A stretch of 61,723 nt of DNA, counting the filler. It is 6 parts of 6 records of this genome, joined end to end, with 100 filler letters (N's around TTAATTAATTAA, not from the genome) between each part and the next. Parts side by side here need not be neighbours in the genome. Positions count along the whole stretch, not along the records: positions 10,933 to 28,061 come from SRR31156797_16439; 5 more parts are not named here. One strand, written 5' to 3'. Positions 10,833-43,822 of the stretch are shown piece by piece. The stretch's first letter is position 1. Each line of letters opens with the position of its first letter. The position numbers were made by a program, and so were the translations under genes. The notes below the pieces were generated by a model that did not search any database, was not told the origin of the DNA, and saw only the letters and a program-made list of their open reading frames with translations.

Positions 10833-10932
10833 NNNNNNNNNNNNNNNNNNNNNNNNNNNNNNNNNNNNNNNNNNNNTTAATTAATTAANNNNNNNNNNNN
10901 NNNNNNNNNNNNNNNNNNNNNNNNNNNNNNNN
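10833..10932. other. Artificial contig linker
   Basis: N44-TTAATTAATTAA-N44 (stops in all six frames). Confidence 0.98.
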
Positions 10933-10987
10933 AATTTGTTTTGTAGGCGAAGCCCTTTTTTAGGTAAATGGATATAGATTTTTTATA

Positions 10988-11010
10988 GGGCGTATGGCGT
11001 CAATACGCCC
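10988..11010. repeat. GC-rich REP-like hairpin / possible terminator of the cyclase gene
   Basis: GGGCGTAT-N7-ATACGCCC in AT-rich DNA near a contig end. Confidence 0.45.
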
Positions 11011-11020
11011 CTGATTTTAT

Positions 11021-14000
11021 TTATTTGCATATCTGATATAACATGCTACAATTTCTTCCATTTTCTTTTCCCAGATATAGAGCCTGATCAGCCCGGTTAA
11101 TGTTCTCATCAATGTTAACAGTGGGATTATATTCTGTTATTCCAAAAGTCATTGTGACATTTAAACATTCGTTTTCTTTAGTTTGGCAAATCATGTTTTC
11201 CAGTTTTTTTCTGAATCTCTCTATGAATAACAGAGCATCCTCTTGTGTAGTATTGGGAAGTATAATTAAAAACTCTTCTCCTCCCCATCTGGCACAAAAA
11301 TCTCCTTTTCTAATTTCTGATTTGATCAAAGACGCTACATTTTTTAGTACTATATCCCCTACTTCATGTCCGTATGTATCATTGAATTTCTTGAAGAAAT
11401 CTATATCAGAAATAATAATGGAAAATGGAGAGTTATGAATGGAGTAACCTGCAATTTCACTCTCTATTTTTTCTCTTGCGCATCTTCTATTAGGAATTGC
11501 TGTTAATGAATCAGTTTTTGATATTTTATCAACTTCGTTTAGAGCAAGTTGAAGTTCCAGATTTTTCTGCTCTATTTCGTTTTTTATTACTTCAAGTTCT
11601 TTGTTTTTTTGGATGATTTTCTGTGATCTGATCTGAACTTGCTCTTCCAGTCTTTTTTTAGCTAATTTAATACTTCTTACACGATATTGATAAATCAAAT
11701 ATAATAGGATCAGTGTTAATAGAAAAATAAACGTTCTAAACCATGTTTTACGCCAATATGGAGGTAAAACAGTTATTTTAATTGCCAATGCCTCGTCTGT
11801 CCAGATTCCATCATTGTTTGCAGCTCTGATTTTAAGAGTAAAGTCACCATCAGGAATATTTGTATATGCTCCAAATCTTCTACTGCCGACATAATTCCAT
11901 TGTTTGTCCAAGCCTTCTAACATATATGCATATTGATTTTTATTACTTTGGATAAAATTTAAACCTGAGAAGTTAAACTCAAAGTAGTTATTACTCCAAT
12001 TTAGAGTAAGGTGATCCAGTTTATCCAGATTGTTATCTTTTAATAGATTATGCCCGTCTTGTTTTAGCGAAGTTAATACAATTGGAGGTTGATAATAGTT
12101 TTTTCTTATATTATTAGGATTAACTATATTGAAACCATTTACCCCGCCAAAATAAAGATTACCGTTTTTGTCTTTAAAATTGGCTCCTTTTATAAATTCA
12201 TTATTTTGTAATCCGTCACTTAAACCATAAGTATCGATTAATGATAATTCATAATTAAATTGCATAATTCCGTTTGTAGTACTAAGCCAAAGCCTAGAGT
12301 GTCTGTCCTCCATAATTGCTGTAATGCTGTCTGATGAAAGTCCGTCCGCTGTAGTAAAGGCTTCAAAAGTCATATCGTCCCTATTGAGTCTGTTAAGACC
12401 TCCTCCAAATGTTCCAATCCATAAATTACCTAATTTATCTTCGTATATATCCGAAATCGAATCAAAACTAATAGAGTTTTTATCTTCTGGCTTACTTTTG
12501 AAAACCTGAAATGAATTTGTTTCTCTGTTATACAGATTTAAACCATTAACAGTTCCAATCCATATATTCCCTCTGCTGTCCTCGAATAATTTCCATGTTT
12601 TGTTAGTTGACAAGTTAGAGTTCTCAGTACTGTAGTGTGTAAAATTCCCGGTTTCAGGATTTAATCTGTTAACTCCCCCGTCCCATGTAGCTATCCATAT
12701 TTCACCAAAACTGTCTTCTGTTATAGCATATACCCTGTCATCACTCAAACTATTATTGTTAAGCAGTTTATTTTTATACATTCTGAAATCATTTGTATCT
12801 TTTTTATAAAGGGCTAATCCGCCATCAGTACCTACCCAAACTCTGTTTTTTGAATCCCTATAGATGCACCGGACTATATTATTTGGTAATGAGTTCATAT
12901 TAATCGGATCGTTTTCAAAATGTATCAATTCATTATTTTCTAATTTGAATTTACTGAGCCCTCCACCAAGAGAGCCTGTCCATATATATCCGTCGTTATC
13001 TTTAATGATGCTTGTAACTATATCATTACTTAGTTTACTGTTTTGGAGTTTTGGTATTTTGATATGTTTGAATAAATTATTTCGCCAAACATATCTGTTA
13101 AGACCGTTCCCCCATGTACCTATCCATACTATGTCAGATCGATCAACTAAAATTGACCATAAAATATTACTTCCCAGAGAATTTGCTTCGTTAGGGTTAT
13201 GAAGATAATTAACAAAATTATCATAATGAAATGAGTATTTTAGAACTCCCCCGTCATATGTTGCAATCCACAGATTATCCATGCTGTCTCGCGAGATACT
13301 TCTAACTGTATTAGTTGTCAGCTCGCTATTATCCTTTGTATAATGAGTGAAACTCTTAGTTTGTTTATTAAATCTATTTAGTCCACCATCCCAAGTTCCT
13401 ATCCATAGATCGTTGTTATGATCCTCATGAATAGTATTTACAGTATTACCTGATAAAAAATATGATTCATCAATTTTATTACTTGAACTTACAAGGTGTG
13501 GATATCTTATTATTTTGTTTTCATTTTCAATATACTGATTTAATCCTTTTCCTTCTGTTCCTATCCAGATGTTACCCTGACTATCTTTAAATAAGACATT
13601 TATCGTATCACTGCTTAGGGAGTTTTCGTCCTCTTCGCGATATCTTAAATATTCGAAATTCTTAGTTTTTTTATTAAGGATATTGATTCCGCCACCATAT
13701 GTTGCTATCCATATATTGCCCTTTGAATCCTCCAGTATTGATTTGATTATGCTGTGATTGATGCTATTCTGCTTGCTTGATGGCAGATAATTCTCAAAAC
13801 GTTCACTTTTTCTGTTGAATTTACTTAGTCCTTTACCTTCTGTTCCTATCCACAGATTTCCTTCGGAATCCTCAAAAATAGTTTGGATAACATTACCAAC
13901 GATACTGTTAGGATCATTGGGATTATTTTTGTAAACTTTGAATTCATAGCCGTCATACCTGTTTAGGCCGTCGTGGGTACCGAACCACATATAACCTATA

Positions 14001-14143
14001 GAATCCTGAAAGATACACAGGATGTTATTTTGTGAAAGACCTTTGTTCGTTGAAATTTGCTCGAAATTAATCTTTTGATTTGCGAAGACTACTAAATTAA
14101 TAAATAAAAAAATAAAATAAAATATACTTGATCTGTACCTCAT
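11021..14143 (-). CDS. Sensor diguanylate cyclase: periplasmic Reg_prop beta-propellers + Y_Y_Y + TM + GGDEF
   Basis: Signal peptide; many ED..GNLWIGT.GGGLN repeats; Y_Y_Y (QYAYMLEG, YTNIPDGDF); TM after PPYWRK; DIDFFKKFNDTYGH, I-site RKGD and RWGGEEF. Confidence 0.92.
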   Translation of the reverse strand: MRYRSSIFYFIFLFINLVVFANQKINFEQISTNKGLSQNNILCIFQDSIGYMWFGTHDGLNRYDGYEFKVYKNNPNDPNSIVGNVIQTIFEDSEGNLWIGTEGKGLSKFNRKSERFENYLPSSKQNSINHSIIKSILEDSKGNIWIATYGGGINILNKKTKNFEYLRYREEDENSLSSDTINVLFKDSQGNIWIGTEGKGLNQYIENENKIIRYPHLVSSSNKIDESYFLSGNTVNTIHEDHNNDLWIGTWDGGLNRFNKQTKSFTHYTKDNSELTTNTVRSISRDSMDNLWIATYDGGVLKYSFHYDNFVNYLHNPNEANSLGSNILWSILVDRSDIVWIGTWGNGLNRYVWRNNLFKHIKIPKLQNSKLSNDIVTSIIKDNDGYIWTGSLGGGLSKFKLENNELIHFENDPINMNSLPNNIVRCIYRDSKNRVWVGTDGGLALYKKDTNDFRMYKNKLLNNNSLSDDRVYAITEDSFGEIWIATWDGGVNRLNPETGNFTHYSTENSNLSTNKTWKLFEDSRGNIWIGTVNGLNLYNRETNSFQVFKSKPEDKNSISFDSISDIYEDKLGNLWIGTFGGGLNRLNRDDMTFEAFTTADGLSSDSITAIMEDRHSRLWLSTTNGIMQFNYELSLIDTYGLSDGLQNNEFIKGANFKDKNGNLYFGGVNGFNIVNPNNIRKNYYQPPIVLTSLKQDGHNLLKDNNLDKLDHLTLNWSNNYFEFNFSGLNFIQSNKNQYAYMLEGLDKQWNYVGSRRFGAYTNIPDGDFTLKIRAANNDGIWTDEALAIKITVLPPYWRKTWFRTFIFLLTLILLYLIYQYRVRSIKLAKKRLEEQVQIRSQKIIQKNKELEVIKNEIEQKNLELQLALNEVDKISKTDSLTAIPNRRCAREKIESEIAGYSIHNSPFSIIISDIDFFKKFNDTYGHEVGDIVLKNVASLIKSEIRKGDFCARWGGEEFLIILPNTTQEDALLFIERFRKKLENMICQTKENECLNVTMTFGITEYNPTVNIDENINRADQALYLGKENGRNCSMLYQICK

Positions 14144-14648
14144 AATTTCCCCTCCGTTTTTACCCCTAATAAAATAGAACCATCAATTCCTTACAATTAA
14201 TATCAATATAGTACAAAAAACATTTTTAGTAAACGCTATACCGAGTATTGGTACCAAAACTAAAAAATAGATACCAAGAATTGTAAAATATGTGCCTATA
14301 TTTTATTGTCTAAATATTTATGTTAATTAAGTGTGAAAGTAGAAAACTATTGAAAATATTGGATTAAATAAAAAATAATCACTATAGAACTAAAGTATAG
14401 GAGATAATTTTTTATTAAAAAAAGGTACCTAATTTTTAAATAACACCTGTAATCTAAACAATGGATACTATTTCCGAAAAAATCGATCTTTAAACAAACA
14501 GATAAGCGAGATATAATATATCGTAAAGTAAAAGTACTCTGAAAAGGTACAAGGTGATTAGTTTAAATACAAAACGACTTCTTAATGGCGTTGTTTAGTC
14601 AGTGAAGGAGTTGGAAGATGATTTTTTATATTTTAAGGAGGATGTTTT

Positions 14649-17078
14649 ATGAAGAAATTATTACTTTTAAGTTTAATTCTATTTTGTTCTTGTTCAACAG
14701 TGGAGAAAGCAGATAAGAACGAAATGGCAGCAACAACTCAGACAGCAAAAGTAGAAACTCAAGAAGTTGTTCCTTTTGAATCAGAAGAGTTAGAAGAGAG
14801 AGAGTTTTATAATGAAAAGTTTGATGAAAAGTGGAATCTAGTTTGGGCAGATGAGTTTAACGGAAAGAGACTAGATCCAAATAAATGGCAATCTCAAACA
14901 GGAAATGGTTTCTGGGCAAATGGAACTTGGATTCAAGGTTGGGGAAATGAAGAACTTGAATTCTATACTGATAGAGAAGAAAACTTAAGATTAGAAGATG
15001 GAATGTTAGTACTTGAAGCTAAAAGAGAAAAATATGAAGGTCAATATGGAGACGGAACAAAAGATTATGAATATACTTCAGGAAAAATAACAAGTAAAGG
15101 TCTTTTTAGTAAAAAATATGGAAGATTTGAAATGAGAGCTAAATTTCCTGTAGGAAAAGGAATATGGCCTGCAATGTGGATGTTAGCAGAAGAGGATATC
15201 TACGGTGGATGGGCATCATCAGGAGAGATAGATATGTTCGAAGGTTGGGGAAGTAAACCTAACACGGTATCTGGAACACTTCATTATGGAAGTACATGGC
15301 CAAGCAATGTTCATACCGGAGATGAGTACGAAGTAGAAACTCCAATCTCAGAATTCCACGACTATGTAGTTGAATGGTTACCTGGTGAGATTAGATGGTA
15401 CATCGACGGAGATCTTTATCAAGTACAAAATGACTGGTATGCAAGAAACAAAGATGAGGCAGTTAACTACACATACCCGGCTCCGTTTGATCAGGACTTC
15501 TACTTCATATTTAACCTTGCAATAGGTGGTTGGTTCGATGGTAATCCTGATGCGAAAACAAAATTCCCTGCAAAAATGGAAGTTGATTATCTAAGAGTAT
15601 ATGACTTAGAGGGTGGATATGATGAAGATATCGCTAAACCTGAAACAGTGAAAGCTGATATTCCATCTAATATAAAACAAGCGGTTAATGGAAACTATAT
15701 ATATAATGGAACATTTGCAGAAGAAAAATCTGAGTGGGCACTTATGAGTCACTTTGGTGGATCAGCAAACTACAGTTTTGAAGATGTAAACGGATCAAAA
15801 CTTCTAAAAGCAGCTATATCAAATGGAGGAGAACAAACATACTCTATACAGGTTATTCAGGAAGCACCGGTAATGAAGGGGCACTGGTATAAACTTACAT
15901 TTGATGCAAAATCAGAAAAAGATAGACAGATTGCTGTAAAAGTAGGTGGAGGAGAGTCAAGAGGATGGAAAGCATACTATGGTAATGATTTCAATCTAAC
16001 AGATTCAGTAAACACGTATTCAGCAGTTTTCCAAATGACTGATGATAGTGATCCAAATGCTAAAGTTGAATTCCAGGCAGGACTTTCAACTCTTGATGTA
16101 TGGTTAGGGAATGTTTCACTTGAAATTGTAGATAATCCTGAAGAAGAGATTAATAACATGGGTAAATTACCATTAGCAAATGGAAATCAAATCTATAACG
16201 GTACTATCGATCAAGGTGAAACTAGCAGAATGCAGTTCTGGATGTTTGATGCAGAAGATGCAGCAACTGTTGGTGTAAACAGTGAAAGACAATTAGTTGT
16301 AGAAGCAGATGGAAACAATGCTGAAGTTTATCAAACTAATTTAGCTTTACTTGAAGATTCAACTTATAAGTTGAAATTTAAAGCTTCAGCTGAAAATGCT
16401 GATACAGTAACAGTTAAATTAACTAATGAAAATGGAACAAAAGTATATGATGCTAAAGAAGTTGAATTAGCTAAAGATGTTAATGAATATAATGTTGAAT
16501 TTAAATATGATGCTCCAACAGATTTAAGTGCAAAATTTGTTATTGATGTATCTGATAATAAAGGTTTAGTTGCATTTGATGACTTCTATATGAAAAAAGC
16601 AGTAGATTATTCTAATATAGAAACAACATTAATTAATGATGAATTCTCAGATAAGAAATCTATAAATAACTGGACTGCATGGATGGGGAAAGAGTATGGA
16701 CATGGTGGAGAATTTGGTTTCTATGTTAGCAAAGGAAAAGCTAAATTATCAGTTAGAGATCTTGGAAATGAATTCTGGAGTAACTTTATATTCCAAAATG
16801 TAAATCTTGTTAAGGGAATTAAATATCAACTTAGTTTTGATATCAGTAGTAGTAGAGAAAGAGAAGTAACGGTTTCACTTGAGAACTCTTCTTATAATAG
16901 AAAAGCAGGTGGAACACTGAAAACGACTAAGAAAAATAGACATGTAGAGTATGAATTCGTTGCAGATAAATCAGAAGAAGTTGGATTAAAATTCCTATTT
17001 GGAAAATATCCAAAAGCTTCTAAAAGAGCACATGATATCTATTTAGATAATGTTAAGTTGGTAGTTGTTCAAGAATAA
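14649..17078 (+). CDS. Lipoprotein GH16 beta-1,3(4)-glucanase with about three CBM4/9-like modules
   Basis: Lipobox (LILFCSC); WADEFNG, GIWPAMWM, catalytic EIDMFE and FNLAIGG; repeated galactose-binding-like modules (IYNGTF..., YKLTFDA). Confidence 0.9.
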   Translation: MKKLLLLSLILFCSCSTVEKADKNEMAATTQTAKVETQEVVPFESEELEEREFYNEKFDEKWNLVWADEFNGKRLDPNKWQSQTGNGFWANGTWIQGWGNEELEFYTDREENLRLEDGMLVLEAKREKYEGQYGDGTKDYEYTSGKITSKGLFSKKYGRFEMRAKFPVGKGIWPAMWMLAEEDIYGGWASSGEIDMFEGWGSKPNTVSGTLHYGSTWPSNVHTGDEYEVETPISEFHDYVVEWLPGEIRWYIDGDLYQVQNDWYARNKDEAVNYTYPAPFDQDFYFIFNLAIGGWFDGNPDAKTKFPAKMEVDYLRVYDLEGGYDEDIAKPETVKADIPSNIKQAVNGNYIYNGTFAEEKSEWALMSHFGGSANYSFEDVNGSKLLKAAISNGGEQTYSIQVIQEAPVMKGHWYKLTFDAKSEKDRQIAVKVGGGESRGWKAYYGNDFNLTDSVNTYSAVFQMTDDSDPNAKVEFQAGLSTLDVWLGNVSLEIVDNPEEEINNMGKLPLANGNQIYNGTIDQGETSRMQFWMFDAEDAATVGVNSERQLVVEADGNNAEVYQTNLALLEDSTYKLKFKASAENADTVTVKLTNENGTKVYDAKEVELAKDVNEYNVEFKYDAPTDLSAKFVIDVSDNKGLVAFDDFYMKKAVDYSNIETTLINDEFSDKKSINNWTAWMGKEYGHGGEFGFYVSKGKAKLSVRDLGNEFWSNFIFQNVNLVKGIKYQLSFDISSSREREVTVSLENSSYNRKAGGTLKTTKKNRHVEYEFVADKSEEVGLKFLFGKYPKASKRAHDIYLDNVKLVVVQE

Positions 17079-17097
17079 AAAAATGAAATACAAATTA

Positions 17098-17125
17098 GTA
17101 TGGGTGTTATTAATAGCACCCGTAC
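17098..17125 (+). other. Intergenic stem-loop without a U-tract (mRNA stabiliser / partial terminator)
   Basis: GTATGGGTGTTAT/ATAGCACCCGTAC stem with G-U pairs on the + strand. Confidence 0.5.
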
Positions 17126-17220
17126 AATAAATAAAATTATTTATAATAACTGAAAAAAATTGTTAATTGATGTTTAAAAACTTATAAGCATTTTTTAACG
17201 ATTAACTTAAAGGAGGAATT

Positions 17221-19098
17221 ATGAAGAAATATCTTACTACAGCGTTTATGCTATTTTCTATTATTGCAACAGCAGAAACCCAGCTAAATATTGGTGGACA
17301 GATATCTGTTGAATTAAATGAATACACAGAGACAGATGGTAATGAATACTACTCAACAAATGGAACTGGTAATATCTTTGGTACTGATGACTGGAAAGGC
17401 TCAACTATGGATAACATAGATGATACAGCTGAAAAATTCCAAGCAACAGTTGATTTAAATATGGAAGCAATTGTTAATGAGGATGTAAAAGTTTACCTTT
17501 CTCTTGAGTCATTGACAGAGAACTTTACAGGTACAACTACAGGAGATGAAGAAACTTCTGTTCAAGAGAGTTCAACTGTTAGAGATAATGAATATCTTTA
17601 TTTAAAAGAATTAAGAGTGGAACTTGATACAGAAATTGCAGAATTTACAATAACAAATGACTTCAACTATAGCTTTAATCCTAGAGTGTTATTTAAGCAA
17701 TTAGATGATAATGATGGAGAACCAATTGCATATGGTGAAGGTATCTATGCAAAAGGAAAAACTGAATTAGTAGATGTACAGGCATTTTTATTCCAGTCAT
17801 CAGATTTAGGTTCTGCTGACGATGATGATCAAGCAGATTATGAATCTGATTACATGGTTTATGGTATCGATGTAGAAAAAGAGTTCAATATTGCAAAGGT
17901 AGGTTTCTTGGCAGTAAATACTCATGATAAAAGTACTGATGTAGAAGGTGACTCATATGATGAAGATAGAGATGTACAACATTATGCAGTTGATGCAGAA
18001 TTTAATCCTTTTGAACTAATAACTGTAAAAGGAGAATATATTACAGCAATTTATGGAGATGACGTTACAGAGGTAGATAATTATATTTCAAATGCATTAA
18101 GTTGGTATACAACTAGTTATGATGTTAGTACTGATGAAGCTAAAGAGGATAATAGTATCTATGAGGGAAGTGTAATAATCAGACCAATGTTAGATGTTGA
18201 AATTACAGCTGGATACAAAAATGTTGGAGAAGATTATTATGCGGTATTAGGAAATTCACATCAAATGAACTATTGGTTCGGAGATGCAGAATTTGATGCA
18301 CATGAGGGGCTAGGATATGAAAAAGGTGCATATGGAAGTATTGCTTATTATATCCCATTCATTCCTATTGATGTTAAAAATACAATTACTTATGAAGATT
18401 TTGAAAATACAAGAAGTGCTGTAAATGATGATGAGGATACTACAACTCAAGAAATTGAAGCCTTATTTGAAATGGGAGATAAAGAAGGTTTTGCTGTTGA
18501 AGCTTCATATAGAAGAAACGAACAGGAAAATGGAGGAACTGGAAGCGTAGATATCCTTAATTACGTATTTAATGACTATAATGCAAATGCTAGTTATAAA
18601 ATGTCGATTGGAGCGAGTGCAACAAATACATTTGCTTTAGACCTAAATTATTATACAGGTCAAGATGAGATATTGGAACAAAACTTCTCAAATGAAAAAA
18701 GATTAAAAGCTTCTTCGATTACTGAATACAAAGTTAATGAAAAGTTAACAGCTAAAGGTATTTATAGATTCGGGATGGCAACAGAAAATAATGATGTAAT
18801 ACAAGATGCCGTTGGAACACAACATATTGTAAAAGCTGGTTTTACATATGCTTTAGCTCATGATTGTACTGTTGATCTTTTCTACAAATATGATGCATAC
18901 AGTTTAGATAGAGAGGCAACAGCTGAAGATTTAGAAAATTCTGTTTATAAAAAAGAAGCTTCTCATCAATGGTATGATGGTGCAGAAAGTTGGCAGCACT
19001 CAGGGGACACTTGGGATGACTGGATGCAGCATGTAACACCTGATTACGATGGTTACATAACTCATGAATTATGTGCAAAATTAACTGTAAAATTCTAA
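17221..19098 (+). CDS. Predicted outer-membrane beta-barrel (porin-like) protein, very acidic
   Basis: SPI signal peptide; many alternating-hydrophobic strands; C-terminal ELCAKLTVKF ending in Phe (beta-signal-like); no TonB plug recognisable. Confidence 0.65.
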   Translation: MKKYLTTAFMLFSIIATAETQLNIGGQISVELNEYTETDGNEYYSTNGTGNIFGTDDWKGSTMDNIDDTAEKFQATVDLNMEAIVNEDVKVYLSLESLTENFTGTTTGDEETSVQESSTVRDNEYLYLKELRVELDTEIAEFTITNDFNYSFNPRVLFKQLDDNDGEPIAYGEGIYAKGKTELVDVQAFLFQSSDLGSADDDDQADYESDYMVYGIDVEKEFNIAKVGFLAVNTHDKSTDVEGDSYDEDRDVQHYAVDAEFNPFELITVKGEYITAIYGDDVTEVDNYISNALSWYTTSYDVSTDEAKEDNSIYEGSVIIRPMLDVEITAGYKNVGEDYYAVLGNSHQMNYWFGDAEFDAHEGLGYEKGAYGSIAYYIPFIPIDVKNTITYEDFENTRSAVNDDEDTTTQEIEALFEMGDKEGFAVEASYRRNEQENGGTGSVDILNYVFNDYNANASYKMSIGASATNTFALDLNYYTGQDEILEQNFSNEKRLKASSITEYKVNEKLTAKGIYRFGMATENNDVIQDAVGTQHIVKAGFTYALAHDCTVDLFYKYDAYSLDREATAEDLENSVYKKEASHQWYDGAESWQHSGDTWDDWMQHVTPDYDGYITHELCAKLTVKF

Positions 19099-19128
19099 TT
19101 AAATCTATTTAAATGGAGGAAAGAAATT

Positions 19129-19893
19129 ATGATAAAAAAATTATTAAGTATTCTTTGTTTAATATCAATGACTATCTTTTTTACGTCATGTACGGACGAA
19201 GGTCAAACAGAAGTTGAAGGTGTGACATTTACCAATAGTTCCAGATTAATGGAAATAGGAGAAGTTTATGAACTATTTGACGAAGTAACTGTTTATCCAA
19301 GCGGTGTTGAATATGATGTAGTAAAATGGCAAAGCTATAACGAAGACGTTGCGACTATTGATAGTACAGGTAGAGTAACAGCAGTATCGAATGGAGCTGC
19401 TACTATAATGCTTTCTGTAAATGGAAATGTAGCAAGTACAAATATTATTGTAGATAAAGCAGGCGAATGGACGTTGTTCTCAAGTGTTTCCGGAGCATCA
19501 ACGACTTACACAATGTGGACAATAAACGAATGGAATGTATCAAATGGAGCTGTAGGAAATCTTACGGAAATTTCACTTGATGGATATGATTCAGTTTTAA
19601 GTATAGAAATTACTGATGCGGGAACATGGGCTCATGCGGCTTTCCCTGGAATTGAAGCAGGAGTATATGAACAAATAAAATTTAAAGTAAGAGCAGATGA
19701 TATTGATGAAATGGTATATATATGGACAGGGACAGAATATACTATAGCAGAGAGTGTTGAGTTAGATAATGATTGGGTTGAAGTTACAATTGATTTTTCT
19801 TCAACTGCTGATAATGTAGTACTGGGACTTGACGGGTCTGCAGGAGATACAATTTACTTTACAGATATAACTTTAATTGATACAGACGCATAG
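19129..19893 (+). CDS. Lipoprotein with Ig-like (Big_2) domain and a putative carbohydrate-binding module
   Basis: Lipobox FFTSC; WQSYNEDVATIDSTGRVTAVSNGAATI; C-terminal WVEVTIDF...IYFTDITL. Confidence 0.75.
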   Translation: MIKKLLSILCLISMTIFFTSCTDEGQTEVEGVTFTNSSRLMEIGEVYELFDEVTVYPSGVEYDVVKWQSYNEDVATIDSTGRVTAVSNGAATIMLSVNGNVASTNIIVDKAGEWTLFSSVSGASTTYTMWTINEWNVSNGAVGNLTEISLDGYDSVLSIEITDAGTWAHAAFPGIEAGVYEQIKFKVRADDIDEMVYIWTGTEYTIAESVELDNDWVEVTIDFSSTADNVVLGLDGSAGDTIYFTDITLIDTDA

Positions 19894-19968
19894 AATATTC
19901 AGAGAGTGTAAGGAGTAATTTTAAAAATAAGTTTTGATTTTATTTAATTATTGAATTTAGGAGGTTTT

Positions 19969-22900
19969 ATGAAAAGAGCAAGAATATCAAAAAAAGCTAA
20001 AAGATTTATTAATTCTTTATTGATTATCGCTGCAACTGTTACATTAACAGCTTGTAGAGATACTGAAACAAGTGAAACAGGGCATACTATAGGGGATGGA
20101 ACTGTTACATTTTCTGGAAGCTTAACAGAAAGTAATGAGAGCTCATCGGTTTTATATGCTACTTCTGGAGATTCAGATTCAGAAGTAGATCAAATGGAGT
20201 ATATTTCAGCAATTCCTACTGATGGAACAACTGATCCAGTTGTTGGAGAAATAAATGATTCTGGTAATTTTGAGATGGTGTTAGAAGCGAATACGAGTTA
20301 TATTTTTAAACTGTTAAATGAATACGGATTACCTGAAAAAGAATTAAATTTTAGCCTGACTTCAGATGCATCTGTGGTTAGTTTAACTGAGGATTTAAAC
20401 CTTACTCTAACAATAGATGAGACAGATAGAGTAGATATAAGCGGAGCCAGTGTAGCATCACAAACAAAAGATAATGTAGATGCAGATATTATTAATACGG
20501 GGCTTATTACTGCTATTCAAGGTGTATTAGAAGCTAATCCTAGTAAAGGAACAATTACACAAGATGAAGATGGAGATTATGTCTTAACACTTAATTTAAC
20601 TAGTTCGGATGACATAACTCAACAAGCAGAATTGACAATTTGCTCAGAAGCTGATACAGATACAGAAGCAGGAGATTTAAACTTTGATGAAACTGAAGGG
20701 GTAAAAGTAACAGCAATAACAGCAACAGGAACAGTTACAGAGAATTATACAATTGATTCAGATGAAGATGCATTAAATACTTTTATAGCTGTAGAAGAAA
20801 TAGCAGAAGAAGTAGCAGAGGCTCCTGAAACAGCTGAAGCAGCATTTGATGATGCTGCGATAGAGACGAAAAAGGAAGAAATAAGTGAAGAAAGAGAAGC
20901 AGATGAGTTATTACCAGAAGGTGAATGGAGTTTAGTTTGGTCAGATGAATTTAATGGAACGAGTATAGATACATCTGTCTGGACTTATGAAACTGGTTAC
21001 GGAGATAACGGCTGGGGTAATGGAGAATGGCAAAACTATACCAATAGTTCTGATAATTCGTATATAGAAGATGGAAACCTTGTAATTAAGGTAAAAGTAG
21101 ATGGAACTGCAGCAGAAAGAGATGGAAGTGTTACTTCTGCTAGAATGATTTCACGGGATAAATATGAGTTTACATATGGTAAAGTTCAAGCTCGTGTTAA
21201 AGTACCAACAGGTCAGGGAATTTGGCCGGCATTCTGGATGTTAGGTGCAAACTACGAAAGTGCAGGTTGGCCAGAATGTGGAGAGATAGATATCATGGAA
21301 AAAATCGGTGGAAGTGATGAAAAAGAAAAAACAGCTCATGGAACTGTTCACTTAACAGGTGCAAGTGGTTCAGGAAGTTTAGGAGGAAGCACAACTATTT
21401 CTGAATATCTTTCAAATGATTATCACGTATATGAAGTTGAATGGTATGAAGATTTAATTATCTGGAAATTAGATGGTGAAGAGTATCATAGGCAGGATAT
21501 GACTGAGTCAAATTTTGATTCTTTTGAAAATTCATTCTTCTTACTATTAAATGTAGCAGTTGGAGGTAATTGGCCAGGATCACCTGATTCAACAACTGTA
21601 TACCCTCAGGAAATGTTAGTAGATTTTATAAGAGTTTACCAAGGTGGAAATGAAAATAGTGAATTTGACTATAGTGAAATAACAGATACAGATGACAATG
21701 GAGACGACAATACTGTTACATTCCAGTTGATAGGTTCATCAACAGACTATAGTGTAGGTGCTGAAGATGGAAGTAGTGTAAGTATGTCAGCTGAAACTTA
21801 TAATGGTGAAGAAGTTGTTGCTATTGATTATAGCTCTATGGGAGCTTGGGGGGGAGGATATTTTGCTCCTTCAGAAGGAACAGCAGCAGAAGATTTAACT
21901 TCTTATTCAGATGGGCAGATAGTATTTACTGTTGATTATTCAGAGTTAAGTGACTTAACGAATCTTGGCGTAAAAGTAGCATCAGGGATATATCCGGATG
22001 AAGTAGGTGGAGAAATTAACTTACTTTCGTTAACACCTGTTTCAACTGATGGAAATTGGAATACATTTGAAGTACCATTGGCTAATTTTACATCATTAGG
22101 TTCAGAAGCAGATTACTCAGCTCTGACAACTTACTTAGGATTCTGGAATCCAAATGACAAAACTGGTAAAATTTACTTGAAAGATGTTTATTTTGAGACG
22201 GATAGTAATGGAGATTCTGGAGATGATGATGACGATACAGGAAGTATAGCAATAACTTTTGAAGGTGGAGCGACATCAGCAACTATGGAAATTGGAGATA
22301 CATTAGTAATTCCAGGACCAGTTGTAACGAATAGTGATGGTACAACAGATGCTTTAGCACCAACAGCAATAGAGTGGACATCAAGTGACTCGTCAGTTGC
22401 AGATGTAAATGTAGCATTTTGGATGGAAGCTTACGGAGCAGGAACTGCAACAATAACTGGAACATATAACGGAATTTCAAGTACTTTAGAGGTAACAGTA
22501 AATGGTTCGGATGATGGTGGAGACGATGACGATGACGATAATGATAACTCGGACATATCTGGTACAGGATTATTAAGTTATGACGATTTCACATTTCCTA
22601 CAAATACAGGTTCTACATATGCAGTAGAAAATGGAGTAATAACATATACAGTAACAGAACTTGGTGGTCAATGGGACAATCAAATTCTAAATGAAGTATC
22701 GATTACAGCAGAAGGAGACTACTTAGCTAAATTTACTGCGAGTTCATCGGTAGATAGAGATTTGTTGTTTAGAATTGATAAAATAGGTTGTGTTGGAACA
22801 AGTGGTGATAATATTATTAGTTTGACAAGTACACCAACAGAATATAGTATAAATGTTACTGATGTTTCGGCAATAGCAGATGGAAAACTAAAAATAGTTA

Positions 22901-24048
22901 TAGCTCTTGGTGATTTAGAAGGAGATTCAGATACAAGTGTACCTTCTACAGTAACATTAACGGATTTTTACTTAGATTTAGATGAAACAAGTGATGGCTC
23001 AAATGATGATGATGACGATTCAGATGACTCAGGAGATGCAAATGCACCAACTACATTAGCGGCAACTCCTACAACAGATTCTAGTAATGTTATTTCCCTG
23101 CATACAAGTAGTGGAACTTACACAAATATTAATGTAGGAGAATGGAATCCAGGCTGGGGTCAAGCGGGAACATTAACTGACGCAACAGTGGATGGAAAAA
23201 CAGTAAAATTACTTGACCTTCAAAACTATCAAGGGATCGATTTTTCTGGAGACATTCAAGATATTACGGGTAAAACTACACTTCATATGAGTGTTTGGAC
23301 AGCAGATGGAGGAGCGTTCAATGTATTTGCTGTTAATGAAGCAGATTCAAATGGAGGAGTTTCAACAGGATCATTAACTGCTGGGGAGTGGAATGAAGTA
23401 GAAGTAACAGTAGATGTAAGTGGATCAGCAAATGATATTAAACAAATCAAATTTGATGGTGGTACAGGATCAAATTACTATTTAGATAACATATATTTCT
23501 ATGGTGATGGAAGTTCAGATAGTGACGATTCTGATAACGATGATTCATCTGATGATGATACAGGTGGAACAGTAAGTTTACCTGTTTTATACACAATAGC
23601 AGATGGAGCAGCTCATACAGATATAACAGAATCAGGTTGGGGTTCGGGATCGTCACTTGTAACTCTAAATAATACAAGTGAAGGAACATATGCTAATGTA
23701 ATGGAATGGCAAATGGGAACTGGCTGGGGAGGACCGGCAGTAGCTTGTTCTTATAACAGTTTATCAGGTTTAGACAGTTATACAACTTTTAATGCTAAAT
23801 TTAAATATACTGATACAAATGCAGCATCACCAGCAACATTCGAAGTTCAAATGGATGGAGCACCTACACAAAGTGTAACTATTTATGGAACTGATGCAAG
23901 TAATTGGACTGAATTAAGTAATGGATGGATTCAAATCTCACTTCCACTATCTAGTTTTGGTTCATTAGCTTCAGTTAATAAAATGGTATTAATTGTTAAA
24001 GATGATGCTTCAAACCCTGTATACTTTACAGATATTTATTTTGAATAA
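19969..24048 (+). CDS. Multimodular acidic lipoprotein GH16 glucanase (unknown N-domain, GH16, CBM-like and Big_2 modules)
   Basis: SD AGGAGG then ATG at 19969; lipobox TLTAC; WSDEFNG, GIWPAFWMLG, EIDIME and LNVAVGG; D/S/G-rich linkers separate the modules. Confidence 0.88.
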   Translation: MKRARISKKAKRFINSLLIIAATVTLTACRDTETSETGHTIGDGTVTFSGSLTESNESSSVLYATSGDSDSEVDQMEYISAIPTDGTTDPVVGEINDSGNFEMVLEANTSYIFKLLNEYGLPEKELNFSLTSDASVVSLTEDLNLTLTIDETDRVDISGASVASQTKDNVDADIINTGLITAIQGVLEANPSKGTITQDEDGDYVLTLNLTSSDDITQQAELTICSEADTDTEAGDLNFDETEGVKVTAITATGTVTENYTIDSDEDALNTFIAVEEIAEEVAEAPETAEAAFDDAAIETKKEEISEEREADELLPEGEWSLVWSDEFNGTSIDTSVWTYETGYGDNGWGNGEWQNYTNSSDNSYIEDGNLVIKVKVDGTAAERDGSVTSARMISRDKYEFTYGKVQARVKVPTGQGIWPAFWMLGANYESAGWPECGEIDIMEKIGGSDEKEKTAHGTVHLTGASGSGSLGGSTTISEYLSNDYHVYEVEWYEDLIIWKLDGEEYHRQDMTESNFDSFENSFFLLLNVAVGGNWPGSPDSTTVYPQEMLVDFIRVYQGGNENSEFDYSEITDTDDNGDDNTVTFQLIGSSTDYSVGAEDGSSVSMSAETYNGEEVVAIDYSSMGAWGGGYFAPSEGTAAEDLTSYSDGQIVFTVDYSELSDLTNLGVKVASGIYPDEVGGEINLLSLTPVSTDGNWNTFEVPLANFTSLGSEADYSALTTYLGFWNPNDKTGKIYLKDVYFETDSNGDSGDDDDDTGSIAITFEGGATSATMEIGDTLVIPGPVVTNSDGTTDALAPTAIEWTSSDSSVADVNVAFWMEAYGAGTATITGTYNGISSTLEVTVNGSDDGGDDDDDDNDNSDISGTGLLSYDDFTFPTNTGSTYAVENGVITYTVTELGGQWDNQILNEVSITAEGDYLAKFTASSSVDRDLLFRIDKIGCVGTSGDNIISLTSTPTEYSINVTDVSAIADGKLKIVIALGDLEGDSDTSVPSTVTLTDFYLDLDETSDGSNDDDDDSDDSGDANAPTTLAATPTTDSSNVISLHTSSGTYTNINVGEWNPGWGQAGTLTDATVDGKTVKLLDLQNYQGIDFSGDIQDITGKTTLHMSVWTADGGAFNVFAVNEADSNGGVSTGSLTAGEWNEVEVTVDVSGSANDIKQIKFDGGTGSNYYLDNIYFYGDGSSDSDDSDNDDSSDDDTGGTVSLPVLYTIADGAAHTDITESGWGSGSSLVTLNNTSEGTYANVMEWQMGTGWGGPAVACSYNSLSGLDSYTTFNAKFKYTDTNAASPATFEVQMDGAPTQSVTIYGTDASNWTELSNGWIQISLPLSSFGSLASVNKMVLIVKDDASNPVYFTDIYFE

Positions 24049-24166
24049 TTAAACAAATTAAGATTGTTTTAGTCTTCAATCTTAATAAAAAATAGAATAT
24101 CTCTCCTTTAGAATAAGTGGTGGATATAAAGCTTACATAAGTTTTAGACACTTGTTCGAAATTATG

Positions 24167-24197
24167 AAAATGACCTCTTAATTAAGGGGTCATTTTT
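24167..24197 (+). terminator. Intrinsic terminator
   Basis: AAAATGACCTCTT-AATT-AAGGGGTCATTTTT. Confidence 0.75.
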
Positions 24198-24471
24198 GCT
24201 ATTTTAGCAAAAAAATAAAAAAAGTATCTGTATTTTGTATTTGATGGTTAAAATATATAAATTCCAAAAAAATGACACTAAATCCAAAAAAAGACTCCTG
24301 TATTAATTTATATAAAAAAAGTATCATGTAATAGTTGGAGGTTTTAAATAAAACGTTATTTACAAAAAGAGGACAAAATGCTTAAAAGTCAGGCGTAAGT
24401 ACTTAAAGTTGATGTGGTTGGTAATATTGGCACAATTTTTTACTAAGTTATTTTGAAAGGAGCTATAAGCT

Positions 24472-27400
24472 ATGAAAAAAAAGAAAATACTGGGAATTCT
24501 ATTACTAGCAGCTTTGAGCCTAGGATTAAATGGATGTTTTGAGGATAATAGTAGCAGTTCAAAATCAGCTGAGAGTGTTGTCGAAGATAGTAGTATAATG
24601 TTTTCTGGTGAATTAGTTGAGAGTAATGTTAATTCAAATGTTTCAGCAGATACTGTAGAAGCAGATGATGAAAGTGAAATTGAAAAAATGCAATATATTG
24701 CTGCAATACCAACAAATGGTAGTAATCCAGTTGTTGTAGAAATAGATGAGAACGCATCATTCGAGTTGCCACTTGATGATGACCTTTACTATTTATTCAA
24801 ATTGTTAGATGAATATGGTCTTCCCGAAAAAGAGTTAAACTTTAGTATAAGTGGAGATTCAGCTATTGCAAATATTCAGGATGATTTAGATTTAACAATA
24901 ACAATTGATGAATCAGAAAGAGTAGATATAGAAAACTCAAGTATTGTTACTAATTCGAAAGATACTGTTAACGCTGATATTGTTGGAGCAGGATTAATAA
25001 CTACTGTAAAAACTATCCTTAATGATAATCCTGAAAAGGGAACTTATACAGAGAATGAAAATGGAGATATAACTTTAACATTAAAACTTGCAGGATCTGA
25101 CTCTGTTGAGCAAGAAATGGAATTTACAATTTTATCCGCAAGTGATGAGAATACAGAAACAGGAGATTTAAATTTTGATGAAGAAGCAGGAATTGAATTA
25201 ACGACAATAATTGAAGGTGGAGAACCAACAATATATAAATACGATATAGAATCAAATGATGACGCTTTTTCAACAGTTCTAGCTATTGATGAAGTAGCAG
25301 AAGATGTTGCAGGTGACCATTCTTTAGCGCAGGAATCATATAAGGATTCAGCAATTGAAGACAAAGTGTCGCAAATAACTGATGAGAGAGCTGTTGAGGA
25401 AAACACAGGTAATGATGATAATGATCAAAATTTAGATCAAGACTCAGATGATGATTGGACACCAGGAGATGGATGGGAGTTATCTTGGGGAGATGAATTT
25501 AGTGGAAGTACTTTAGATGATGCTAATTGGACACATCAAATTGAAGCTGCAAGGAGATTTAATAATGAACTTCAGGCATATACAGATAGCATAGAGAATA
25601 GTTATGTTCAAGATGGAAGCATGGTAATTGAAGCTAAAAAAGATGGTGATTCGTATACTTCCGCAAGGATGATTACTCACGGGAAAGTAAGTACTCAATA
25701 TGGAAAAGTAGCTGCAAGAATTAAAGTTCCATATGGTCAAGGAGTATGGCCTGCATTCTGGATGTTAGGTTCAAATATAGATGAAAATGACGGTGGAACA
25801 GTTGCATGGCCATATTGTGGAGAGATTGACATTTTAGAGAAAAAAGGTGGAACCGAGGTAGAAGAAAAAACATTAATGGGGACTATCCATTACTGGAAAG
25901 ATAGTGGTAATTACAAAACTCATGAAGGTGGATCTATCCAAATGGATGAAGAGTTAAAAGATGATTATCATGTTTATGAAGTTGAGTGGAGTGATGATTT
26001 AATAATTTGGAAAATTGACGGAGAACAATATCATGCAATAGATACTAGCAGTTCTGATTATGATGAATTTGATGAAGATTTTTATATATTACTTAATTTA
26101 GCAATAGGTGGAGATTTTGATGGAGCTCCAGATGAAAATACTATCTTCCCTCAAAAAATGTTGGTTGATTGGGTAAGAATATATGAAGGCGGAGAAGTTG
26201 TAGATACTGGAAATATAGAAGGAAATGGTACTGATGGAGAAATTGAATTTGATGGTGATATATGGACACTTTGGTCAGAAGGAAGAACAACAGCTACGAT
26301 AGAAGATGGAATGGCTAAACTGGAAACAACAGATTTAGGAGATGTATGGTGGAAAACTCAATTTTATCAGGAAATAGATTTTACAAATAAAGAAGAGGGT
26401 TCATATCAATTATCATTTGATGTAAAAGCAGAGGACGCAACAGATATGGTAGTCCAGTTTAATTGCTTACTTATGGCAACAACTTTGCCTGTTGATTCTG
26501 AATTCTACGATGGGCTAGATTCTCAAATAAGATATGATGTTTCGACAGAAATGGTAACTATAACACAAAATGTTGAATTATTTGGATTTGATCCGGGTGC
26601 AACTTTGAAACTTAACTTTGGATTTGGAAATGTAAGTGATTCATCAGTGCCTACTACTGTTTATCTTGATAATGTGTCATTAACAAAATTAGGAGCAGAT
26701 GGAACACCAGACACTGATAACGATAATGATGATTCAGACGATACAGATAGTCCTTTATCTATAATATTTGTAGGAGGATCAACATCTGCTGAAATGAATG
26801 TAGGAGATGTTAAAGAATTACCGGCTCCGTCAATGACGTACAGTGACGGAACATTTGAGTCAATTGCACCACCGTTTATTAAATGGACTTCAAGTGATTC
26901 GTCAGTAGCTGATTTAAATCAAGCTTTCTGGCTAGAAGCTTATGGAGCAGGAACTGCAATAATTACAGGAACATATGCTGATGCGGACGGTAATACATAT
27001 GCTGATACATTAGAAGTAACAGTAACAGGTGATGAGGAAAGTTCAGATGACAGTGAGGATTCTAACGATTCAGGAGATACTGAAGATTCAGACGACTCGG
27101 GAGTTCCTGTAAGCGGAACGCTATACTCAGTGACAGACGGAGCAATTTACACAGATGTATCAGAACCATCTTGGGGTCCGGGTTCATCACTAGTGGCTTT
27201 AAATAAGACAGATGAAGGAACTTATTCGAATGTTATGGAGTGGTCAATGGGGACAGAATGGGGAGGAGCAGTAGCTTGTGGTTTTAATAATCTTTCAGGA
27301 CTAGGCAGTTATACAACTTTAAATGTAAAATTTAAATATACGGATACAGAAGCAGCGTCACCAGGAACATTTGAAGTACAAATGACAGGTGCTCCAACTG

Positions 27401-27582
27401 TATCAGTAACGATTTATGATACAGATACAGGTAATTGGACAGATTTAAGCAATGGCTGGGTACAAGTTTCTATACCGCTTTCAAGATTTGGCTCGTTAAC
27501 AGGAGTTGAACAAATGGTATTCATAGTTAAAGATCCAGATACTTCAAATCCAGTGTATTTCACAGATATCAATTTTGAATAA
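24472..27582 (+). CDS. Paralogous multimodular acidic lipoprotein GH16 glucanase
   Basis: Lipobox LNGC; WGDEFSG, GVWPAFWMLG and EIDILE; shares the N-domain, Big_2 and C-terminal module with 19969..24048. Confidence 0.88.
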   Translation: MKKKKILGILLLAALSLGLNGCFEDNSSSSKSAESVVEDSSIMFSGELVESNVNSNVSADTVEADDESEIEKMQYIAAIPTNGSNPVVVEIDENASFELPLDDDLYYLFKLLDEYGLPEKELNFSISGDSAIANIQDDLDLTITIDESERVDIENSSIVTNSKDTVNADIVGAGLITTVKTILNDNPEKGTYTENENGDITLTLKLAGSDSVEQEMEFTILSASDENTETGDLNFDEEAGIELTTIIEGGEPTIYKYDIESNDDAFSTVLAIDEVAEDVAGDHSLAQESYKDSAIEDKVSQITDERAVEENTGNDDNDQNLDQDSDDDWTPGDGWELSWGDEFSGSTLDDANWTHQIEAARRFNNELQAYTDSIENSYVQDGSMVIEAKKDGDSYTSARMITHGKVSTQYGKVAARIKVPYGQGVWPAFWMLGSNIDENDGGTVAWPYCGEIDILEKKGGTEVEEKTLMGTIHYWKDSGNYKTHEGGSIQMDEELKDDYHVYEVEWSDDLIIWKIDGEQYHAIDTSSSDYDEFDEDFYILLNLAIGGDFDGAPDENTIFPQKMLVDWVRIYEGGEVVDTGNIEGNGTDGEIEFDGDIWTLWSEGRTTATIEDGMAKLETTDLGDVWWKTQFYQEIDFTNKEEGSYQLSFDVKAEDATDMVVQFNCLLMATTLPVDSEFYDGLDSQIRYDVSTEMVTITQNVELFGFDPGATLKLNFGFGNVSDSSVPTTVYLDNVSLTKLGADGTPDTDNDNDDSDDTDSPLSIIFVGGSTSAEMNVGDVKELPAPSMTYSDGTFESIAPPFIKWTSSDSSVADLNQAFWLEAYGAGTAIITGTYADADGNTYADTLEVTVTGDEESSDDSEDSNDSGDTEDSDDSGVPVSGTLYSVTDGAIYTDVSEPSWGPGSSLVALNKTDEGTYSNVMEWSMGTEWGGAVACGFNNLSGLGSYTTLNVKFKYTDTEAASPGTFEVQMTGAPTVSVTIYDTDTGNWTDLSNGWVQVSIPLSRFGSLTGVEQMVFIVKDPDTSNPVYFTDINFE

Positions 27583-27658
27583 CTTGCAAGTAAAAATAAA
27601 TAATTTGAGATTGTTTTAGTCTTCAATCTTAAGAAAAATTAACATCTCCCTTTTAACT

Positions 27659-27693
27659 AATGGATTGCCGATAATTTTGGCAGTCCATTTTTT
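27659..27693 (+). terminator. Intrinsic terminator
   Basis: AATGGATTGCC/GGCAGTCCATT stem followed by a T-tract. Confidence 0.75.
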
Positions 27694-27721
27694 ATTTTAA
27701 CTGAACTTGATTTTTTAGACA

Positions 27722-27947: not shown

Positions 27948-28061
27948 AAATACATTATACACTAAAAAGAATAAAAGTTAAATCATATCACAATAAGAGA
28001 CACTAAAACAATAAATTGATGCCTAGTTTTGTAGTTATATAAATTTTAGTTTCTTTTTGAT

Positions 28062-28161
28062 NNNNNNNNNNNNNNNNNNNNNNNNNNNNNNNNNNNNNNN
28101 NNNNNTTAATTAATTAANNNNNNNNNNNNNNNNNNNNNNNNNNNNNNNNNNNNNNNNNNNN
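28062..28161. other. Artificial contig linker
   Basis: N44-TTAATTAATTAA-N44; GC content jumps across it. Confidence 0.98.
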
Positions 28162-43802: not shown

Positions 43803-43822
43803 ATTGCCTTAGTACTTACATA

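Follow-up and report, generated by a model that had tools for sequence, protein, structure and literature searches.

The window, as the whole stretch of 61,723 nucleotides analysed here is called, contains a 17,129-bp contig (SRR31156797_16439) with five co-oriented genes, which encode three glycoside hydrolases of family 16 (GH16), a large acidic outer-membrane beta-barrel and a small lipoprotein, and with one divergent gene for a sensor diguanylate cyclase (Table 1). On balance the gene row is likely to be a locus by which a diderm anaerobe, most probably one of the Fusobacteriota, captures and takes up beta-1,3-glucan (laminarin). The barrel is probably a channel that admits beta-1,3-gluco-oligosaccharides without TonB, in concert with a glycan-binding lipoprotein at the surface. 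The barrel is read as the gate for the import of beta-glucan fragments because it always stands beside GH16 enzymes in two unrelated groups of anaerobes. Its family is a new one in a role of known kind, distinguished by an unusual size and by a lipoprotein conserved along with it, and at the level of titles and abstracts the literature held no account of this family or of a laminarin locus of such design in Fusobacteriota or Halanaerobiales. A first-pass annotation, made from the letters of the window, had proposed a beta-glucan locus of non-Sus type with a barrel of its own, for which the comparative evidence below provides good support.

Laminarin is among the largest pools of marine organic carbon, and its uptake is understood mainly for Bacteroidota, with their SusC/SusD systems, and for Proteobacteria with TonB-dependent receptors. 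An unnamed and rare family of large barrels, tied to GH16 laminarinase loci in two unrelated lineages of diderm anaerobes (Fusobacteriales-like and Halanaerobiia), is a concrete candidate for the passage of glycan fragments over the outer membrane in envelopes that are little studied. As several cultured and named carriers exist (Hypnocyclicus thermotrophus, Halanaerobium saccharolyticum, Halanaerobacter jeridensis, Orenia marismortui and Halothermothrix orenii), the idea that the barrel is a channel is directly testable.

Linkage of the barrel family to GH16 genes

Twenty-four homologues of the barrel, with identities of 35–66%, were found among 5.8 billion clusters, while a profile search of 1.84 billion representative proteins returned eight members of the family at E ≤ 0.001, four of them full length. 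Among 190 Fusobacteriota genomes two are carriers, and among 102 of the class Halanaerobiia eight, one of these through a weak partial match; every carrier genome searched gave one barrel match. The two closest homologues share 66% and 58% identity with the barrel, and the named relatives come from a Fusobacteriaceae metagenome-assembled genome (47%), H. thermotrophus (46%), O. marismortui (44%) and H. orenii (35%).

Related loci were collected from species-representative genomes (4), metagenome contigs (8), the 190 Fusobacteriota genomes (2 carriers) and the 102 Halanaerobiia-class genomes (8 carriers), and 16 loci entered the linkage count after the dropping of duplicates, one locus without flanks and a weak match. 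Left out were L013 (2.1 kb, no flank); L006, which is the same place as L001; L005 and L018–L025, which are short versions of regions later fetched larger; and L030 (genome G232), which has a weak partial barrel match. Each of the 16 loci that remained has GH16 genes in its fetched flanks of 10 kb or less on each side of the barrel (tblastn; Pfam), and 10 of the 12 GH16 genes in five carrier genomes sit no more than 10 kb from it. The linkage of barrel and GH16 is strict across two lineages, and the association with carbohydrate-active enzymes that the first-pass annotation had expected was thus found throughout. The locus left aside as a weak match, L030 (contig 72 of G232), has a 679-aa frame that matches only positions 307–451 of the profile (E 1.6e-16), and the 11.4-kb contig around it lacks GH16; the frame may be a distant relative of the barrel with another set of partners.

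Several gene orders and two deep clades are represented among the related loci. In a maximum-likelihood tree of 19 barrels, whose midpoint root serves for drawing only, each of the two clades has 100/99 support. One contains the Halanaerobiia loci; in the other, the window is joined by its two close relatives (66% and 58%), by L001 and L016 of Fusobacteriales and by some metagenome loci. The order of genes in the window (GH16-CBM4, barrel, Big_2 lipoprotein, GH16) matches that of Fusobacteriales-type loci, and the GH16 domain of the first enzyme in the row shares 63–65% identity with its first-gene counterparts in L001 and L016. As the barrel tree, the gene order and this identity agree with Fusobacteriales-type loci, the host is likely Fusobacteriota-like, which fits the origin put forward by the first-pass annotation.

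Recurrent partners in the related loci are GH30, GH3, a GH94-type phosphorylase, a protein of about 1084 aa and ABC sugar importers, accompanied by regulators of LacI or histidine-kinase/AraC type, whereas no glycosyltransferase or synthase was present in any related locus scanned. The GH30, GH94 and ~1084-aa proteins have no signal peptides and would therefore be cytoplasmic. TonB-dependent receptor matches over the cut-off number 0–1 per genome in five carrier genomes, with none at the barrel locus. The ~1084-aa protein, which belongs to no Pfam family and adjoins the barrel in most related loci, shares 23–25% identity with the GH94-type phosphorylase and is a candidate beta-1,3-glucan phosphorylase.

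The outer-membrane barrel

The barrel protein carries a signal peptide (MKKYLTTAFMLFSIIATA) and ends in KLTVKF, the C-terminal phenylalanine (F625) being invariant in 25 of 25 barrel sequences. Its AlphaFold2 model, built on a 25-sequence alignment (predicted local distance difference test, pLDDT, 76; predicted template modelling score, pTM, 0.71), is a plugless outer-membrane barrel with some 24 strands: 24 long strands were counted in its DSSP string, and they begin right after the signal peptide. The acidic barrel ending in Phe that the first-pass annotation had described thus models as such, and not as the soluble fold that would have spoken against it. Just before the last strand lies a short helical segment (residues 565–610), which is highly conserved and rich in Trp, Tyr and His.

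The protein matched no family of Pfam (E ≤ 0.1) or NCBIfam (E ≤ 0.01), those of the sugar porins LamB, OprB, OprD/ChiP and KdgM included, and in the protein atlas it falls among unnamed hypothetical barrels, with a cluster in which 13% of members have Porin_4 and a DUF6029 cluster. Foldseek counted 327 of 500 matches of the model at E ≤ 0.001, and the best 50 listed are outer-membrane barrels; the Foldseek and VIA-align matches listed are generic outer-membrane barrels only, none of which stands out. Among them, maltoporin (1mpr) has a VIA-align Z of 16.3 over 304 residues (root-mean-square deviation, rmsd, 7.4), MtrB has a Z of 13.9 over 417 residues (rmsd 5.6; Foldseek E 9e-10 and TMq 0.43 for 6r2q_B), and the usher PapC (7lhg) has a Z of 12.1 over 394 residues (rmsd 4.3).

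Sugar-specific channels offer a functional parallel, since LamB (1mpr), ScrY (1a0s), ChiP (5mdo, 7vu2) and CymA (4d5b) are likewise TonB-independent barrels whose genes lie beside enzymes for one glycan and an ABC importer, and all are among the best fold matches of the model (Z 14.2–16.3; ChiP 14.2). These channels, however, have 14–18 strands and about 320–420 aa, whereas the barrel described here has about 24 strands and 625 aa, shares no sequence family with them and is coupled to a lipoprotein gene, and the alignments with them cover only 250–300 residues at an rmsd over 7 Å. For maltoporin and ChiP, which have 16–18 strands, 254–304 of the 625 residues align (rmsd 7.4–7.6).

Weak Pfam matches lead in a different direction: of 25 homologues, 19 match DUF2490, 11 the C-terminal barrel of PelB and 4 Porin_4, with weak matches to similar families besides, and AlgE, PgaA, BcsC and PelBC are among the fold matches (Z 12.7–15.3). 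The barrel could accordingly be an exporter or anchor of polysaccharide, like PelB, BcsC or AlgE, or a general porin that rides in the operon, and the locus would then have no dedicated import step at the outer membrane. This explanation is highly improbable, as the neighbouring genes are all catabolic or import genes, the loci scanned are free of glycosyltransferases and synthases, and the barrel of the window itself matches none of DUF2490, PelB_C and Porin_4 even at E 0.1; a general porin would further be at odds with the rarity of the family and its co-occurrence with GH16 in 16 of 16 loci.

The GH16 enzymes

All three enzymes of the row match PF00722 (GH16) with 66.7–78.4 bits against a cut-off of 22, and each GH16 domain contains the catalytic motif E-x-D-x-x-E in its E-I-D-x-x-E form, namely EIDMFE (residue 193 of the first enzyme), EIDIME and EIDILE (residue 451 of giant GH16 B). 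Their nearest solved relatives are laminarinases and beta-1,3-glucanases from Thermotoga (4dfs, 3azx), Pyrococcus (2vy0) and Rhodothermus (3iln), with E values of 1e-50 to 2e-64; for the first enzyme the best structures are 4dfs (E 9e-59) and 3azx (E 2e-58). The three enzymes thus look laminarinase-like with intact catalytic motifs, in agreement with the beta-1,3(4)-glucan type to which the first-pass annotation had assigned them by the ExDxxE motif. One CBM_4_9 module (CBM, carbohydrate-binding module) of the first enzyme also has a match in 1gui, the CBM4 with which Laminarinase 16A binds laminarin (E 1.2e-6). The GH16 domains are closest (E about 1e-58 to 1e-64) to the modular laminarinases of Thermotoga Lam16A type, which combine GH16 with CBM4 modules (3azx, 4dfs, 1gui) and from which the two giant enzymes differ in being lipoproteins with extra N- and C-terminal modules and poly-acidic linkers.

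Giant GH16 A consists of an unassigned N-terminal module of about 300 aa, the GH16 domain, and then CBM-like and Big_2-like modules. It shares 45% identity with giant GH16 B over 582 aa and has a C-terminal module in common with it, and in both proteins the modules are joined by runs of Asp, Ser, Asn and Gly of up to 26 residues. The N-terminal module of about 300 aa, which is common to both, has no relative in any related locus fetched, its scores in the protein atlas were all 0.90 or less, and a Pfam search of the unassigned modules of the giant enzymes at E ≤ 1 gave nothing over the curated cut-offs. The C-terminal module recurs, at 38% identity, in the barrel-adjacent lipoprotein of L009.

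Clear lipoboxes are seen in the translations of the small lipoprotein (FTSC), giant GH16 A (LTAC) and giant GH16 B (LNGC), so that the lipoprotein assignment of the first-pass annotation holds for these three, while the first enzyme has a signal peptide with an ambiguous lipobox (LFCSCS) and its orthologues in L001 and L011 have signal peptides without Cys. The same annotation had placed the first enzyme in the periplasm, where it would finish hydrolysis. That role was drawn from a small difference in isoelectric point (pI 4.69, against 4.05 for both giant enzymes and the small lipoprotein) and is not sustained, since the protein is still acidic (net charge −47) and has three polymer-binding CBM4_9 modules.

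The barrel-adjacent lipoprotein

A lipoprotein gene lies directly 3′ of the barrel gene in 14 of 17 loci (window included), with measured gaps of 28–122 bp. It is of Big_2 type in the Fusobacteriales-like clade and of CarboxypepD_reg type in the Halanaerobiia clade, the N-terminal Ig-like domain being conserved and the C-terminal module variable, and two of the Halanaerobiia versions match the xyloglucan-binding domain of a Bacteroides surface glycan-binding protein. The model of the lipoprotein in the window comprises an Ig domain and a beta-sandwich, in keeping with the small Big_2/CBM-like lipoprotein of the first-pass annotation. Its best fold matches are the Big_2-CBM56 of a Paenibacillus illinoisensis (Bacillus circulans) protein (7quz, E 1e-8), CBM29 and CBM4, it also resembles the Bacteroides surface glycan-binding protein B (SGBP-B), and two giant-GH16 modules show a weak resemblance to its C-terminal half (pairwise E 3e-4 and 6e-4).

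In complex prediction, the barrel and the lipoprotein scored 0.39, against 0.00 for the best of three controls, with runs that agree in at least 86% of contacts and a partner pLDDT of at least 72. In calibration 51 of 78 solved complexes passed the mark, as did 2 of 108 mismatched pairs; scores of 0.60 or under comprised only 5 of the 78 solved complexes and all four passing mismatches. A pass in this range is wrong more often than not, except for a guess that was likely beforehand.

The size of the barrel suggests another use for this lipoprotein. The longest alignments of the model are with barrels of the size of MtrB (6r2q_B; 417 residues), the ushers FimD and PapC (394 residues for PapC) and LptD of LptD/LptE (5iv9), and LptD resembles the barrel also in having an adjacent lipoprotein gene. 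Such barrels can enclose a partner: LptE sits in LptD, and MtrA in MtrB. The barrel might thus carry or anchor the lipoproteins of the locus (the GH16s and the binding protein) on the surface, without any part in import, the N-terminal Ig-like domain being held in or threaded through the lumen. The absence of a plug domain from the model would suit this arrangement, as would the tight coupling to a lipoprotein gene whose product is always Ig-like at its N-terminus whatever its C-terminal module, and the complex prediction is weakly supportive. The barrel nevertheless lacks an adjacent lipoprotein in 3 of 17 loci, occurs as a single copy per carrier genome and is linked to one class of substrate (GH16), while a display device would be expected beside many kinds of lipoprotein. 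From MtrB, LptD and the ushers themselves the barrel differs in its context, which is glycan catabolism and not electron transfer, lipopolysaccharide transport or pilus assembly; it has no sequence relation to them, and unlike the ushers it has neither a plug nor periplasmic domains. Anchoring or surface display is rather improbable as the function of the barrel, and stays in play because the size of the barrel is nearer to that of partner-enclosing barrels than to that of sugar channels.

Proposed uptake route and comparison with Sus-type systems

In the preferred reading, that of a channel for beta-glucan fragments, surface GH16 endo-laminarinases, lipid-anchored or secreted and extended by CBMs, would cut the polymer, and the small Big_2/CBM lipoprotein would hold the glycan at the outer membrane. 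The barrel would then pass oligosaccharides over the outer membrane without TonB energy, and an ABC importer with cytoplasmic GH30, GH3, GH94-type phosphorylase and the ~1084-aa protein, encoded elsewhere in the genome, would complete the process as in the related loci. The divergently encoded cyclase, which would sense the periplasm, may couple some periplasmic signal to cyclic di-GMP (c-di-GMP).

Several points weigh against this route. The main doubt is raised by the predicted number of strands, about 24, which is far above the 14–18 of known sugar channels, and to our knowledge no sugar channel has about 24 strands without a plug. Such a barrel would be an open hole unless its loops, the segment 565–610 or a partner fill it. 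The model is poor in places (pLDDT < 50 at 47–68, 100–123 and 347–364), and the PelB C-terminal barrel weakly matched by the homologues (best E 2.8e-6) belongs to an exporter. The lipoprotein, whose co-occurrence with the barrel the first-pass annotation had also expected, is lacking downstream in L027, L010 and L014; the fold matches of the window's lipoprotein are leads only because of the low confidence of its model (pLDDT 64), and its predicted complex with the barrel is likewise only a weak lead. The loci, moreover, are not independent: L003, L008 and L012 hardly differ from one another, nor does L001 from L016, and by the barrel tree the real independence amounts to a handful of lineages in two clades. 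Transport, its direction and the substrate are inferred from neighbouring genes only, and the contig, which stops 480 bp past the last gene, includes neither an importer nor the downstream enzymes; the recurrent GH30, GH3, GH94-type, ~1084-aa and importer genes are all absent from it.

Laminarin utilisation loci of SusC/SusD type are known in marine Bacteroidota (for example PMC4069401). The present locus resembles them in its cluster of GH16 endo-laminarinases predicted to be at the surface, its putative surface glycan-binding lipoprotein and its dedicated outer-membrane barrel, and also in the downstream enzymes and inner-membrane importer, which are here found in the related loci. Unlike SusC, the barrel has no plug and no signature of TonB-dependent receptors or of SusC, and uptake would be passive; unlike SusD, which has a tetratricopeptide-repeat fold, the binding lipoprotein has an Ig fold and a CBM-like module and no match to the SusD family. 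No protein of the window locus matched CarboxypepD_reg, Plug or TonB_dep_Rec in Pfam, and the hosts are Fusobacteriales-like and Halanaerobiia instead of Bacteroidota. The first-pass annotation had stressed the absence of SusC/TonB receptors and SusD from the contig, and indeed no open reading frame (ORF) scanned matched the Plug, TonB_dep_Rec or SusD families (Pfam, E ≤ 0.01 and E ≤ 1e-5); the absence, however, covers 17 kb only, because the window is a concatenate.

A further-reaching proposal is that the barrel and the Ig/CBM lipoprotein form a stable two-part counterpart of SusC/SusD, independent of TonB and suited to long laminarin fragments, the wide lumen being gated by the lipoprotein or by segment 565–610, and that the locus has moved between Fusobacteriota and Halanaerobiia (diderm Firmicutes). 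This is conceivable and, in our estimate, unlikely. If true, it would mean a mode of 'selfish' glycan uptake in such anaerobes, which would have been missed so far because the barrel family has no name.

The sensor diguanylate cyclase

The divergent gene encodes a membrane-bound protein with an N-terminal signal or membrane helix, periplasmic Reg_prop propellers (220 bits), a Y_Y_Y domain (59.6 bits), a membrane helix at about 805–825, a coiled coil and a GGDEF domain (PF00990, 151 bits; TIGR00254, 161 bits). The active site reads RWGGEEF, with the RxxD site (RKGD) five residues upstream, and the protein looks like a functional, intact diguanylate cyclase of known architecture. HisKA, HATPase, receiver and AraC-type output domains were not found in it (Pfam, NCBIfam), leaving GGDEF as the only output. 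The combination of Reg_prop propellers and Y_Y_Y is shared with the hybrid two-component sensors of Bacteroides, which differ in having kinase, receiver and AraC outputs, and the combination of periplasmic propeller, Y_Y_Y and GGDEF output with GdpX2 and GdpX3 of Xanthomonas oryzae, Reg_prop/Y_Y_Y-GGDEF proteins whose sensor function is listed as unknown in the relevant passage of PMC6637768. In distinction to both, the cyclase gene of the window lies directly beside a row of GH16 genes.

The first-pass annotation had described a glycan-type sensor wired to the locus. Such a sensor would bind beta-glucan oligosaccharides in the periplasm and raise c-di-GMP, tying laminarin to attachment or lifestyle or, indirectly, to the expression of the locus. 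The position of the gene, divergent from the GH16 row with which it shares a contig, agrees with this idea, as do its intact GGEEF and RxxD motifs, and the hybrid two-component systems of Bacteroides use this sensor fold to bind fragments of glycans. Genomes G001 and G098 also encode a 1058-aa protein with this architecture at some 10 kb from the barrel; its sensor, however, is only 24–28% identical to that of the window, and genes for pyruvate kinase, phosphofructokinase, acetyl-CoA carboxylase and a response regulator lie in between. Other related loci have LacI or histidine-kinase/AraC regulators instead, seven further Fusobacteriota loci with such sensors (several on short contigs) include a glycoside hydrolase in none of the seven, and the closest relative (47% identity, genome G140) is near genes for glycogen synthase and ADP-glucose pyrophosphorylase. 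The wiring thus comes down to adjacency, its relatives elsewhere standing apart from carbohydrate-active enzymes, and a role in glucan sensing is tentative at most and rather unlikely. The Fusobacteriota genome G140 (L031–L035) has at least five Reg_prop/Y_Y_Y sensors, with GGDEF, histidine kinase and hybrid kinase outputs, none of which adjoins a glycoside hydrolase.

The idea that the cyclase acts on the operon through a c-di-GMP riboswitch was dropped, as no Rfam family reached the gathering score and the fold of the leader is ordinary (z −1.4); in the divergent intergenic region Rfam gave only a chance-level match to uxuA (E 0.31). Promoter-like sites are present at 14350–14379 and 14489–14517, and are not evidence, since the region has fewer such sites than shuffled sequences.

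Gene row and composition of the window

The six genes named in the first-pass annotation, one on the minus strand and five on the plus strand, were recovered at their coordinates by ORF and Pfam scanning (Table 1).

Table 1. Features of the locus and its contig, the linkers of the window, and the ~1084-aa protein of related loci
Feature	Position	Strand	Size	Remarks
Contig with the entire locus (piece 2)	10933–28061		17,129 bp	depth 37.8; N linkers on both flanks
Membrane-bound sensor diguanylate cyclase	11021–14143	−	1040 aa	Pfam: 10 Reg_prop stretches, Y_Y_Y, GGDEF
Divergent intergenic region	14144–14648		505 bp	between cyclase gene and GH16 row
GH16 laminarinase-like enzyme (first enzyme)	14649–17078	+	809 aa	Pfam GH16, three CBM_4_9 stretches, DUF642-like C-terminal module
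Predicted outer-membrane beta-barrel	17221–19098	+	625 aa	pI 4.08; structure model; no Pfam/NCBIfam family
Small acidic lipoprotein	19129–19893	+	254 aa	Pfam Big_2 and CBM-like beta-sandwich (model); starts 30 bp past barrel gene
Giant acidic GH16 lipoprotein A	19969–24048	+	1359 aa	Pfam GH16; ORF 19951–24048, ATG at 19969 the likely start
Terminator-like hairpin	24165–24198	+		in 423-bp gap between giant GH16 genes; weak, 7 such sites against 4.1 expected
Giant acidic GH16 lipoprotein B	24472–27582	+	1036 aa	Pfam GH16; paralogue of A
Facing pair of terminator-like hairpins	27659–27689; 27772–27727	+; −		appears to close the gene row
N linkers (N runs located in the window)	10833–10932; 28062–28161; 37488–37587; 45193–45292; 56208–56307		100 bp each	
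~1084-aa protein (related loci)	L002:6245–9511; L003:120–3374; L007:6145–9399; L012:6137–9391; L010:14663–17800			partial in L001 and L016

The window consists of six separate assembly contigs, with GC contents of 29, 33, 48, 37, 30 and 32% in order, joined by five identical 100-bp linkers, each of which has a 12-base motif with stops in all frames (TTAATTAATTAA) between two runs of 44 N (440 N in total). Piece 2 is identical, without a single difference, to one assembly contig of 17,129 bp in DNA run X1, which is probably its source and hence no independent support; a 2.2-kb neighbour at depth 35 overlaps the left end of that contig, and no RNA run is listed with this stretch. Of ten proteins of the window, none had an exact counterpart in the collection searched. 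The pieces appear, by their genes, to derive from at least three phyla, being Fusobacteriota-like, Desulfobacterota-like and Bacteroidota-like. ThiC at 75–1376 shares 89% identity with three Fusobacteriota genomes, and the same three match the window at 48.8–61.7 kb at the DNA level; an amidase at 31779–33224 is 61–65% identical to proteins named Deltaproteobacteria, Desulfobacterales or Thermodesulfobacteriota, while PrmA at 41201–42037 is 77% identical to the PrmA of Draconibacterium (Bacteroidota) against 27–31% for that of Fusobacteriota genomes. Genomic islands or a chimera, which the jumps in GC at 28–45 kb and the Bacteroidota-like PrmA could have suggested, were rejected, as the N linkers show separate contigs. 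The taxonomy of the locus must therefore rest on its own genes, and any reading that uses the flanks of the window has to allow for the concatenation of unrelated contigs. No tRNA gene was found in the window, nor did any Rfam family reach the gathering score anywhere in it.

Two ORFs run into linkers and are thus truncated, with an artefactual end: that at 9512–10888, which encodes an sCache_2-HAMP chemoreceptor, is cut within the signalling domain at the end of piece 1, and that at 45241–46434, which encodes a P-type ATPase, is cut by the start of piece 5. Piece 3, the Desulfobacterota-like piece of 48% GC, has an MtrA-like gene (tetrahydromethanopterin S-methyltransferase subunit A family) at 34562–35242, beside MatE, TetR and the amidase. 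The Bacteroidota piece (piece 4) has a DUF6850 and DUF4876 gene pair at 42207–45157, which stands beside PrmA, is unrelated to the locus and is cut at the end of the piece.

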